Source of the DNA: Candidatus Bathyarchaeia archaeon
Lineage (GTDB): Archaea > Thermoproteota > Bathyarchaeia > Bathyarchaeales > DTEX01
Length of the DNA: 64,000 nucleotides
Assembly: GCA_038867895.1 (NCBI GenBank)
Contig: JAWBXL010000008.1
Location: 43 to 64,042 of the forward strand
Direction: 5' to 3'
Shown: piece by piece, positions 15,968 through 18,662 of the stretch
Numbering within the stretch: position 1 is the first letter of the stretch
Layout of the letters: the number at the start of each line of letters is the position of its first letter
Made by a program: the position numbers and the translations under genes
Notes under the pieces: generated by a model
The model's database searches: none
What the model was told of the DNA's origin: nothing
What the model saw: only the letters and a program-made list of their open reading frames with translations

Positions 15968-16468
15968 TTAGATGAGGACCACTCCCTCATTTTGTCTAAC
16001 TCCCTCTGGCGGTAGCTGGGACAACCTATTCACTAACTCGATATAATACTCATTTTTAAGGAACTTTTCAAACTCTTGGAAGACGATACTCTTAGTTTCA
16101 TTTATCTTCATACAAATTGGTCCTTTAGAGTATGCTTCACTTAGATCATATATTGCTATGTGCTTCCGCATATCGCGATCCACAGCAATAATCGCAAATA
16201 TGTCCTCCGGAGGCCTTTCTTGGAAGATCCATGCCGTATAAGAGACGTTCACCAATCTATAAAATACATCATTTTCTCGTACCGGATAAAGATTGCTGAA
16301 GGCTATTGTCTTAAAAGTTTTTGGATAAACTTTCCTGGCGCAAAGAAAATTATGATATTCGCCCTCTGCATAAACAATATCCTCATATGGGGAAACCCAC
16401 CAACCCATTAACCTACACTGATGCTTAAATTGCCTAATTAAATCCCAAACTACAGGTATAGATTGCAT
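15968..16468 (-). CDS. hypothetical protein (no recognisable family)
   Basis: A 166-aa ORF that is the only long frame here, visibly more AT-rich than its neighbours. It abuts the AT-rich spacer that would hold its promoter. Confidence 0.5.
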   Translation of the reverse strand: MQSIPVVWDLIRQFKHQCRLMGWWVSPYEDIVYAEGEYHNFLCARKVYPKTFKTIAFSNLYPVRENDVFYRLVNVSYTAWIFQERPPEDIFAIIAVDRDMRKHIAIYDLSEAYSKGPICMKINETKSIVFQEFEKFLKNEYYIELVNRLSQLPPEGVRQNEGVVLI

Positions 16469-16695
16469 CTCTATTCTCCATATAAAATATGGTAAATCTA
16501 CCTTATAAATTATATATTTTTAATGAAAAACTTCATTTAAGCCAAAAAATTGATAATTTCGTCTTTAAAATTTTAAAGAAACTTAGAAAGATCTGATTTT
16601 TTAAAATTCCAATATTTTTTGAGTAAAATTTTTATTGGACAAGATTTTCATAATATTTTGTAAAATAAAGTCCTATTTCAGGAGGAGGGATTTTT

Positions 16696-16779
16696 ATGCC
16701 GAAGAAGAAGGAGGAAAAGAAGGAGAAAGCTGAAGCTAAACCAGAAGAAGAGAAAAAAGAGAAGAAAAAGAAGAAGTGA
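16696..16779 (+). CDS. candidate micro-ORF encoding a 27-aa Lys/Glu-rich peptide (MPKKKEEKKEKAEAKPEEEKKEKKKKK)
   Basis: ATG preceded by AGGAGGAGGG (16680-16689, 7-nt spacer) and ended by TGA. It lies 105 nt upstream of ABCE1 on the same strand and falls below the ORF-track size cutoff. Confidence 0.35.
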   Translation: MPKKKEEKKEKAEAKPEEEKKEKKKKK

Positions 16780-16883
16780 AGAGACAAATAGTGTTTTCCA
16801 ATAAACCTTTTTTAGTTAGATTTTTATTTTCAGGTAAATTTATTATTTAATCTCATTCAAGAACTTTTAGGAGGAGAACGAGT

Positions 16884-18662
16884 ATTAGGATAGCGGTTAT
16901 CGATGCCGATAAATGCAAGTCTAGCCGCTGCGATAGGGTATGCTATCGTTTTTGTCCGCAGGTTAGGAGTAGAGTTGAGGCCATTAGATTTGAGGATAAT
17001 AGGCCAGTGATCTCGGAGGTTCTATGTACTGGATGTGGAATATGCGTTAAAAAGTGTTCGTTTAAGGCGGTCTCCATAGTTAATGTTCCGGAGGAGCTGA
17101 AGGGTGAGTGCGTTCATAGGTTTGGGCCAAACACCTTTAAATTGTTCCGCCTACCAGTCCCCTCACCTGGGATAGTTTTAGGGTTATTGGGTCAGAATGG
17201 AATTGGAAAAACAACGGCAATAAAAATTCTTTCTGGCGAGATAAGACCTAACCTTGAAAGATATGTTGATCCACCAGACTGGCCTGAAATAATACAGTAT
17301 TTTAGGGGCTCGACACTTCAAGCATACTTTCAAAGGCTGAGTAGGGGCGAGCTTAAAATTGTTCATAAGCCCCAATATGTTGATAAGATACCACGTGTCG
17401 TGAAGGGTAAGGTTGGCGAGATACTTGAGCGTGTTGATGAGAGAGATAAGCTTACGGAGGTTTCCGAGAAACTTCAGCTTAAGGTTATATGGGATAGAAC
17501 TCTGGATGTATTAAGTGGTGGTGAGCTTCAGAGGGTTGCTATCGCAGCGGCTGTTTGCCGTGAGGCTGACGTTTACCTGTTTGATGAGCCCTCTAGCTAC
17601 TTGGACGTTAAGCAGAGACTTGAGGCCGCTAAGGTGATTAGGAGCCTAAAAGAGGAGAATAAGATGATAATCGTTGCAGAGCATGATCTGGCGGTTCTTG
17701 ATTACCTATCTGACCAGGTTTGTGTCTTCTATGGCAAGCCAGGAGTCTATGGGATAGTCTCCCACGTTCATGGGGTTAGGGTTGGGATAAACATTTACTT
17801 GGATGGCTTCATTCCGGACGAGAATATGCGCTTTAGGAAGGAACAAATAATATTTCATGTTAAGCCGCCAGTCGGCGACTCGCCAACCAATGCGCCAATT
17901 TTAAGGTGGGGTGAGATGACAAAGACCTATGGGGACTTTAGGCTTAAGATAGATTCTGGTGAGGCTAGGCTAGGTGAGGTTATAGGCATATTAGGGCCAA
18001 ACGGGATCGGCAAGACGACATTTATAAAGATATTAGCTGGGTTAGAGAAGCCGGATCAGGGATTGTCCCCGACAGAGAATGTTCTTGGGGTCAGTTATAA
18101 GCCGCAATATATTTCAACGGAGTATGAGGGAACTGTTGAGGATCTTCTAAAATTGGCTGCCAAAGACAAGTTTTCCTCAAGCTGGTATCAGACTGAAATA
18201 ATTAATCAGCTCAACCTAAGTTCCCTCTTTGATAGGAATATGAAGGAGCTTAGTGGTGGTGAGCTTCAGAGGGTTGCTATAGCCGCCTGTCTATCTCATG
18301 ATGCAGACATATATCTCCTTGACGAGCCGAGCGCGTATCTTGATGTGGAGGAGAGGCTAGCGATGGCCAGAGCTATACGCAGAGTCGTCGAGGATAAATG
18401 TGTAACAGCCTTTGTCGTTGAGCATGATATAATCGCCATGGATTTTATAGCGGATAGGCTAATGATTTTTACTGGCAAGCCTGGAATTTATGGAGTGGCT
18501 AAGTCGCCGACAAGTCTCCTAGACGGCATGAACAGTTTCCTTAAAGAGATGAGCATAACTTTTAGAAGGGACCCGGACACTAAGAGGCCAAGAGTGAATA
18601 AGGAGGATTCTAAACTTGATAAATATCAGAAAAAGATTGGACAATATTATTATGTTAAATAG
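16884..18662 (+). CDS. abce1: ABCE1 / RNase L inhibitor homolog (ribosome recycling ATPase), probable ATT start
   Basis: Two ABC NBDs (Walker A GQNGIGKT and GPNGIGKT; signature LSGGELQRV twice). The N-terminal FeS domain has its first Cys cluster (DKCKSSRCDRVCYRFCP) upstream of the ORF-track GTG at 17007. The frame is open from 16851 with no ATG/GTG/TTG. ATT 16884 aligns with the conserved MRIAVID start, and GGAGG lies 9 nt upstream. The 3' end is certain; the 5' end is moderately confident. Confidence 0.85.
   Translation: MRIAVIDADKCKSSRCDRVCYRFCPQVRSRVEAIRFEDNRPVISEVLCTGCGICVKKCSFKAVSIVNVPEELKGECVHRFGPNTFKLFRLPVPSPGIVLGLLGQNGIGKTTAIKILSGEIRPNLERYVDPPDWPEIIQYFRGSTLQAYFQRLSRGELKIVHKPQYVDKIPRVVKGKVGEILERVDERDKLTEVSEKLQLKVIWDRTLDVLSGGELQRVAIAAAVCREADVYLFDEPSSYLDVKQRLEAAKVIRSLKEENKMIIVAEHDLAVLDYLSDQVCVFYGKPGVYGIVSHVHGVRVGINIYLDGFIPDENMRFRKEQIIFHVKPPVGDSPTNAPILRWGEMTKTYGDFRLKIDSGEARLGEVIGILGPNGIGKTTFIKILAGLEKPDQGLSPTENVLGVSYKPQYISTEYEGTVEDLLKLAAKDKFSSSWYQTEIINQLNLSSLFDRNMKELSGGELQRVAIAACLSHDADIYLLDEPSAYLDVEERLAMARAIRRVVEDKCVTAFVVEHDIIAMDFIADRLMIFTGKPGIYGVAKSPTSLLDGMNSFLKEMSITFRRDPDTKRPRVNKEDSKLDKYQKKIGQYYYVK

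Follow-up and report, generated by a model that had tools for sequence, protein, structure and literature searches.

A probable Lys/Glu micro-gene adjoining ABCE1 in one genus of Bathyarchaeia, probably translated and probably without cis control over its neighbor

The 27-codon Lys/Glu open reading frame (ORF) preceding ABCE1 in the window, i.e., the whole analyzed stretch of 64,000 nucleotides from a Candidatus Bathyarchaeia archaeon, is best explained as a stand-alone, probably translated, fast-evolving, and dispensable micro-gene, encoding a charge-only Lys/Glu peptide and adjoining ABCE1 without controlling it in cis (probability of about 0.55). The unit would comprise an AT-rich BRE/TATA-like element, a strong Shine-Dalgarno (SD) sequence, 27 codons, and an oligo-T terminator approximately 30 nt past the stop codon. 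Its predicted product is a Lys/Glu peptide of ~3.3 kDa with a net charge of about +6 and apparently without fold-specifying sequence. Only the Lys-rich ends (MPKKK... and ...KKK-stop) are kept, while the middle part would grow and shrink by triplet-repeat slippage, yielding products of 12-31 residues. As no fold-specifying sequence is apparent and only the Lys-rich ends are kept, the peptide would act through its charge; its most likely target would be a polyanion, such as rRNA or the ribosome, or else the hyper-acidic Glu/Trp micro-protein that these organisms also encode. The gene probably predates the divergence of the two larger clades within the genus, and its loss or decay in most species suggests that it is dispensable. 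It precedes ABCE1 by about 90-190 nt in the same orientation, at a site that holds a Glu/Trp micro-gene in most other Bathyarchaeia and many Thermoproteota, and ABCE1 is probably transcribed from its own promoter, independently of the micro-gene in cis.

The host is represented by a hot-spring Bathyarchaeia metagenome-assembled genome (G000), whose closest public relatives are the Jinze and Zhenzhuquan bins from Tengchong. Thermophilic lineages bearing reverse gyrase, including these Tengchong bins, have been described (PMC8407382). On re-reading of the sequence, the micro-ORF (16696-16779, plus strand, TGA stop included) consists of 27 codons between the ATG at 16696 and the TGA at 16777-16779, encoding 14 Lys, 8 Glu, 2 Ala, 2 Pro, and the initial Met, and closes with AAG AAA AAG AAG AAG TGA. 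Nine of the Lys codons are AAG and five are AAA, and the longest A-run is 6 nt. The SD sequence AGGAGGAGGG (16680-16689, plus strand), whose GGG core is invariant in 6/6 aligned loci, is located 6 nt 5' of the ATG. The layout given by the first-pass annotation (SD, ATG, 27 codons, an end of five Lys codons, TGA, and T-tracts) is thus confirmed, except for the spacer between SD and ATG, which it had put at 7 nt.

The transcription limits of the unit can be placed tentatively. A candidate BRE/TATA element, GTAAAATTTTTATT (16623-16636, plus strand), lies 60-73 nt 5' of the ATG, and the block also occurs in the closest relative, G018. It scores 5.2, compared with a median best-site score of 5.1, under a matrix derived from 181 SD-led genes of this genome; the matrix is poorly discriminating in the AT-rich spacer, where several sites score 4.5-6.3, and AT-rich stretches at 16566-16579 and 16663-16671 constitute alternatives. 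Archaeal RNA polymerase terminates at oligo-T, and by analogy AAACCTTTTTT (16803-16813, plus strand; T6 at 16808-16813), found 24-34 nt past the stop codon, is a candidate terminator. A second T-tract, TTTTTATTTT (16821-16830, plus strand), directly 5' of the ABCE1 promoter, could be either a terminator or an upstream promoter element.

Downstream, the unit is bounded by ABCE1, which lies outside it. ABCE1 (16884-18662, plus strand) encodes 592 aa with a Fer4_RLI and two ABC_tran domains according to Pfam, and is preceded by a BRE/TATA element of its own, GGTAAATTTATTAT (16833-16846, plus strand; conserved motif RCAARTTTATTA), 3' of the micro-ORF stop, and by the SD sequence GGAGGAG (16870-16876, plus strand). 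Its frame contains no canonical start codon and must therefore begin at the ATT at 16884, 104 nt past the micro-ORF stop. The upstream neighbors are the reverse gyrase gene and a minus-strand gene for a 166-aa orphan protein; with the orphan gene oriented in this way, the 415-bp spacer constitutes a divergent promoter region. The orphan gene itself (15968-16468, minus strand), divergent from the micro-ORF, has no Pfam match and is conserved, at 50-75% identity and in the equivalent position, across at least 11 congeneric species.

A short SD-led ORF is by itself unremarkable in this genome. As many as 109 SD-led ATG-ORFs of 20-100 aa are found outside long ORFs, under a loose SD definition and with many of them looking spurious, and T-runs are also frequent in the AT-rich spacer. 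It is the composition, together with the cross-species conservation of the start, that marks the micro-ORF as real beyond chance. Only two ATG-ORFs of 10-70 aa with a K+E fraction of at least 0.65 are present in the 1.7-Mb genome, the micro-ORF being one of them. Likewise, merely three tracts of at least 75 nt with at least 90% purine occur genome-wide: the micro-ORF, the hinge of the ribosomal stalk protein aP1, which is coding, and the Glu/Trp ORF, a conserved micro-gene on contig C2.

The distribution of the ORF was assessed by locating ABCE1 in 41 genomes of the order, 60 further Bathyarchaeia genome loci, 78 metagenome contigs, and 120 Thermoproteota genomes, and by scanning the upstream regions with a script. 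Five species, all of one genus, proved to have a K/E ORF beginning with MPKKK ahead of ABCE1, with 27 codons in the window genome, 31 in G018, 22 in G007, 20 in G011, and 12 in G013. The G013 ORF corresponds to that of G011 less one 8-codon repeat, with its stop codon changed from TGA to TAG. Across these carriers, the stop codon is located 89-186 nt 5' of ABCE1. The 20 congeneric ABCE1 loci divide into five with an intact ORF, three with a decayed one, and 12 without any; among the last, the reverse gyrase/orf166/ABCE1 synteny is retained in at least five. The decayed homologous stretches are cut to 13 unrelated codons in G016, lack an ATG in G002, and carry ATA and a frameshift in G022. The locus thereby displays several states of a micro-gene within one genus (intact, shortened, start-less, and frameshifted), constituting a small natural experiment on micro-gene birth and loss.

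Beyond the genus, scanning ahead of ABCE1 revealed no K/E ORF, whether in the remainder of the order and the sister genera (10 loci), in other Bathyarchaeia (about 50 loci), or in Thermoproteota (60 genomes of about 30 families). The 19 closest of the 78 metagenome contigs yielded only the already known carrier species, plus one Ala-to-Thr variant. In the ABCE1 tree, the ORF is found in clade A (six species, support 100/99), where it is decayed in three, and in one pair within clade B. The post-stop GAGAC common to both clades argues for a single origin followed by losses.

Besides these loci, the only look-alikes are a 14-codon ORF in G001 and G021 and a 17-codon ORF in G032, described below. 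The former, MPKKKK-G/V-KSGKKKK, is free-standing (L113:1501-1545 in G001 and L118, minus strand, in G021), located away from ABCE1 in an AT-rich spacer 3' of a sugar-kinase-like gene, and kept between the two close species with a stop change from TAA to TGA.

Evidence for translation comes mainly from the pattern of conservation. In a six-locus alignment, a single block, GGG-N-T-N4-ATGCC-N-AAGAAGAA, is invariant, which covers the core of the SD sequence, the ATG, and the first four codons, while the spacer flanking it barely aligns. The four other carrier species retain the GGG, the ATG, CCN, and AAG AAG of the start block, along with the Lys-run and the stop. The Pro codon changes at its third base only (CCG, CCA, and CCT), the AEAKP block differs between G000 and G018 by three synonymous and zero non-synonymous changes, the stop is retained in G013 despite the substitution of TAG for TGA, and terminal Lys runs of 3-5 residues are conserved among carriers. 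The carrier clades are separated by more divergence than the flanking spacer survives. Judging from these comparisons, the conserved start block and the wobble-only and synonymous changes favor translation and some purifying selection. The second suggestion of the first-pass annotation, a genuine K/E-rich micro-protein, is supported in this respect, the SD, ATG, and first codons forming the best-conserved block of the spacer in five species. Nevertheless, transitions within a K/E polypurine tract are mostly silent or exchange K and E, and triplet slippage produces indels of 3n without any selection, so frame maintenance is weaker evidence here than usual. With five of 20 loci intact, three decayed, and a 2.5-fold variation in length, selection would be weak or episodic.

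The 3' end shows a similar, looser regularity. In G000, G007, and G011 (as well as in the metagenome variant of the last, L205), the sequence past the stop contains a motif resembling AAAC(C)TTTT(T), and G013 has a looser T6 tract. Runs of T5-6 between the micro-ORF and the ABCE1 TATA element are found in all five ORF-bearing loci of the genus, and a sequence resembling GATTTTTATTT occupies the position of the second T-tract in G000, G018, G007, and G016.

The same observations bear on the neutral alternative, which survives best among the competing explanations but is rather unlikely. It holds that the ORF is non-functional or dying, a polypurine triplet-repeat tract that chanced on an SD sequence and an ATG, possibly as a relic of an older micro-gene at this site, and that it persists by slippage rather than by selection. 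Decay in half of the clade A species, absence from 12 other congeners, and a length ranging over 12-31 codons would fit such a history, but not readily the conservation of the start block and stop between clades whose flanking spacer is unalignable, nor variation restricted to wobble positions and synonymous changes. Purine tracts contain few stop codons in any forward frame; yet a single transversion would turn any K/E codon into a stop, and the frame has stayed open in five lineages. About 50 other spurious-looking SD-led ORFs of 20-35 codons exist in the genome, although it contains no comparable non-coding polypurine tract elsewhere. Furthermore, neither a purine tract nor a TGG relic was found in the intermediate lineages, leaving derivation from the Glu/Trp gene unsupported.

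The Glu/Trp micro-gene is nevertheless the natural point of reference for this position. Outside the genus, 44 of 51 Bathyarchaeia loci have a Glu/Trp micro-ORF ahead of ABCE1, in the same orientation and with an EEEEW-stop ending, as do 24 of 60 Thermoproteota genomes. The stop of this ORF is usually located 107-260 nt 5' of the ABCE1 start, and a 22-codon form is near-invariant in peat and soil lineages. In the present genus, the gene has 40-45 codons, an added basic N-terminus, and a location away from ABCE1; in the window genome, it corresponds to a polypurine tract on the minus strand of contig C2 (C2:31830-31955), for whose 41-aa product a homolog search returned no word-sharing candidates. 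The K/E ORF occupies the position upstream of ABCE1 that the Glu/Trp gene vacated. Long purine tracts are found upstream of ABCE1 only where a K/E or Glu/Trp ORF is present, G022 keeping a short remnant, and both kinds of tract lie at equal coordinates (-190 to -105). The site just upstream of ABCE1 is a recurrent home of tiny, highly charged, unannotated archaeal genes, usually acidic and Glu/Trp-rich, here basic.

Several further observations concern the Glu/Trp gene. Two DNA patterns detected none in G018, G004, or G008, three genomes of the genus that are 95-99% complete, of which G018 has the longest K/E ORF. The adjacency of the gene to ABCE1 is lost in families f1, f5, and f12, the lineages in which ABCE1 starts with ATT or ATC instead of ATG. 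As these families group together in the ABCE1 tree bar one genome (G038, weakly placed), the loss of adjacency and the change of start codon may be a single event rather than a statistical association. G032 encodes a bicistronic unit (L149:1478-1573) in which a 12-codon acidic ORF ending in EEEEEEW-stop, with its own SD, is followed after 4 nt by a 17-codon poly-Lys/Arg/Gly ORF.

An origin of the K/E ORF from a Glu/Trp gene at this position, by frameshift or mutation, was also considered but is not supported. No TGG relic was detected, in the lineages between the Glu/Trp-bearing families and the genus the region preceding ABCE1 contains no purine tract, and the C2 locus has no flanking synteny in common with the ABCE1 loci of other families; the sequences being of low complexity, these negative results only lower the likelihood of such an origin.

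An unlikely alternative assigns a function to the position itself. The K/E peptide would serve as a basic counterpart to the hyper-acidic Glu/Trp micro-protein, each binding or buffering the other in a process connected with ABCE1 and translation. The stops of the two ORFs lie at similar distances before ABCE1 on the same strand (89-186 nt for K/E and typically 107-260 nt for Glu/Trp), but no K-rich ORF accompanies ABCE1 in 51 other Bathyarchaeia loci. G032 has a Glu/Trp and poly-Lys pair in one bicistronic unit, while 29 of 30 Glu/Trp loci in the order have no K-rich ORF beside the gene; within this order only G032 shows such an arrangement, and a general acid/basic pairing was accordingly rejected. 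The basic N-terminus acquired by the Glu/Trp gene of this genus might also point to a partnership. However, the net charges are unmatched (about +6 versus about -25), most congeners have the Glu/Trp gene without the K/E ORF, and G018 has the K/E ORF without a Glu/Trp gene detectable by either pattern. Should the K/E peptide prove to bind either the Glu/Trp peptide or the ribosome, it would offer the first functional handle on the larger, unexplained Glu/Trp family.

According to the main reading of the first-pass annotation, the micro-ORF encodes a leader peptide that tunes ABCE1 expression. In its explicit form, ribosomes that pause or await recycling at the terminal Lys codons and stop would hide the T6 terminator or maintain the coupling to RNA polymerase, so that low recycling capacity leads to read-through into ABCE1 or to ribosome hand-on to its weak AUU start. 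Such a mechanism would be biologically coherent, as ABCE1/Pelota splits terminated and stalled ribosomes; moreover, conservation within the unit extends to the Lys-run, the stop, and the oligo-T that follows, and the micro-ORF precedes the weak AUU start by 104 nt on the same strand. Nevertheless, comparative evidence argues against the micro-ORF as a control switch for ABCE1, and the leader is a very unlikely explanation.

One objection is the promoter of ABCE1 itself. The BRE/TATA motif RCAARTTTATTA is present 41-67 nt 5' of the ABCE1 start, and hence after the micro-ORF where there is one, in practically every one of the 30 loci of the order, irrespective of the micro-ORF. The position of the 16833-16846 site is typical of this genome, where promoter sites lie 50-65 nt before start codons, and its score is 4.5, compared with a median of 5.1 for best sites (matrix from 181 promoters of this genome). 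By comparison across the order, a BRE/TATA past the micro-ORF stop predicts a transcription start site for ABCE1 downstream of 16779. The order-wide conservation of the element (L001-L030) stands out from a surrounding spacer that is otherwise unalignable.

The species distribution points in the same direction. The frame, which a leader would be expected to conserve along with its gene, is missing or decayed in 15 of the 20 congeneric loci, i.e., in 15 congeners whose ABCE1 retains its AUU/AUC start, and in all other lineages searched. This distribution and the predicted ABCE1 start site past 16779 come close to two of the outcomes that the first-pass annotation had itself named as counting against its proposal. 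In the three natural knock-outs (G016, G002, and G022), the ABCE1 promoter, SD, and ATT start are unchanged, and no compensating change was seen. The 14-codon look-alike of G001 and G021, located away from ABCE1, likewise speaks against a leader.

Further points concern the spacer RNA, the codons, and the gap. Folding of the spacer RNA gave no structure better than shuffled sequences (z = +1.75; 196/200 shuffles fold as well), and no Rfam match was found for it. Long poly(A) tracts are linked to stalling in eukaryotes; the micro-ORF contains none, since its Lys codons are mainly AAG. Termination-reinitiation is typical of adjacent or overlapping prokaryotic cistrons, and the 104-nt gap is too long for it. 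Taken together, the conserved promoter, the unchanged signals in the knock-outs, the absence of an alternative fold, and the AAG-rich Lys codons argue against a leader tuning ABCE1, and that proposal finds no support here, although some low-level read-through into ABCE1 may occur. Given a conserved promoter belonging to the neighbor and natural knock-outs, the locus also calls for caution: an SD-led homopolymeric mini-ORF need not be a leader peptide. Highly improbable, finally, is an accessory recycling sensor acting in a few species on top of the constitutive promoter, in which an unsplit terminated ribosome on the Lys-run and stop would cover the RNA before the oligo-T and suppress intrinsic or FttA/aCPSF1-type termination, read-through adding ABCE1 when it is limiting.

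Independently of these readings, the start of ABCE1 varies among Bathyarchaeia. Among the 25 loci examined in families f1, f5, and f12 (L001-L025), 24 use ATT or ATC and one uses TTG, and these ATT and ATC starts are always preceded by a strong GGAGG-type SD. In more distant Bathyarchaeia, an ATG is found one codon upstream. Six genomes of family f28 (G057, G072, G080, G087, G110, and G141) have ABCE1 frames of 785-926 aa that match the query from its residue 53, which suggests an N-terminally extended or fused ABCE1.

The preferred reading, a stand-alone micro-gene for a charged peptide, can be set against known systems by comparison rather than by homology. No Pfam family was matched at E ≤ 10 by three orthologues of the peptide, and neither an NCBIfam nor a PDB match was obtained; a literature search on archaeal ABCE1 uORFs and lysine-rich archaeal small proteins returned nothing relevant. 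Like bacterial leader-peptide attenuators and polybasic stalling uORFs, the micro-ORF is short and SD-led, contains a run of one residue, and is followed by T-tracts upstream of a functionally related gene; it differs by a promoter that, by comparative inference, intervenes before that gene, by the apparent lack of competing hairpins, and by not being conserved with the gene.

Eukaryotic TMA7 (PF09072) and the K/E-rich factors of ribosome hibernation, Lso2/CCDC124 among them, are also small and Lys-rich; like the K/E peptide, they are presumed to be disordered or helical and might conceivably be connected with the ribosome and ABCE1-dependent splitting. The K/E peptide is two to three times shorter and has neither sequence similarity to them nor a common conserved motif; the resemblance to TMA7 noted in the first-pass annotation obtained no sequence support from Pfam (PF09072 included, E ≤ 10).

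A resemblance in composition is found in the aP1 stalk hinge, an E/K/A-rich run of near-identical composition that also forms a long polypurine tract in G000. The C-terminal tail of archaeal aP1 is reported to bind translation GTPases and ABCE1. In G000, the C terminus of aP1 reads ...ALEGLASLFG; the micro-ORF, by contrast, closes with a Lys run and encodes neither the N-terminal dimerization domain nor the hydrophobic, GLxxLFG-type factor-binding tip. Duplication of the hinge was rejected as an origin, the best local DNA alignment covering 48 nt confined to the purine tract; the resemblance is compositional only.

Poly-lysine micro-genes and the tiny basic ribosomal proteins (the eL41, bS22, and Thx class) resemble the K/E gene in that their product is very short and Lys-rich, in being self-contained, with a strong SD and a terminator of their own, and in having a housekeeping neighbor that they adjoin without controlling it. 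The promoter, SD, and terminator of the K/E unit, read from sequence only, would place it with the poly-lysine micro-genes. By contrast, its product is ~30% Glu, with a net charge of about +6 and neither Arg nor aromatic residues, and the gene varies in length and is lost in most congeners, which is not the behavior expected of a core ribosomal protein. Instead of the broad conservation of a ribosomal component, the K/E gene has a range of five species in one genus.

The Glu/Trp micro-gene provides the closest parallel in location. The two differ in the sign of their charge, and the K/E ORF, which has no Trp codon in any frame and hence no C-terminal W-stop, encodes a basic product that sets it apart from the Glu/Trp family; it is also far narrower in distribution (five species) and much less conserved in sequence. 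Both, however, are small polypurine genes of similar size with an SD of their own, too short for standard gene callers, and both occupy the same position, on the same strand and at the same distance upstream of ABCE1, with the promoter of ABCE1 lying between.
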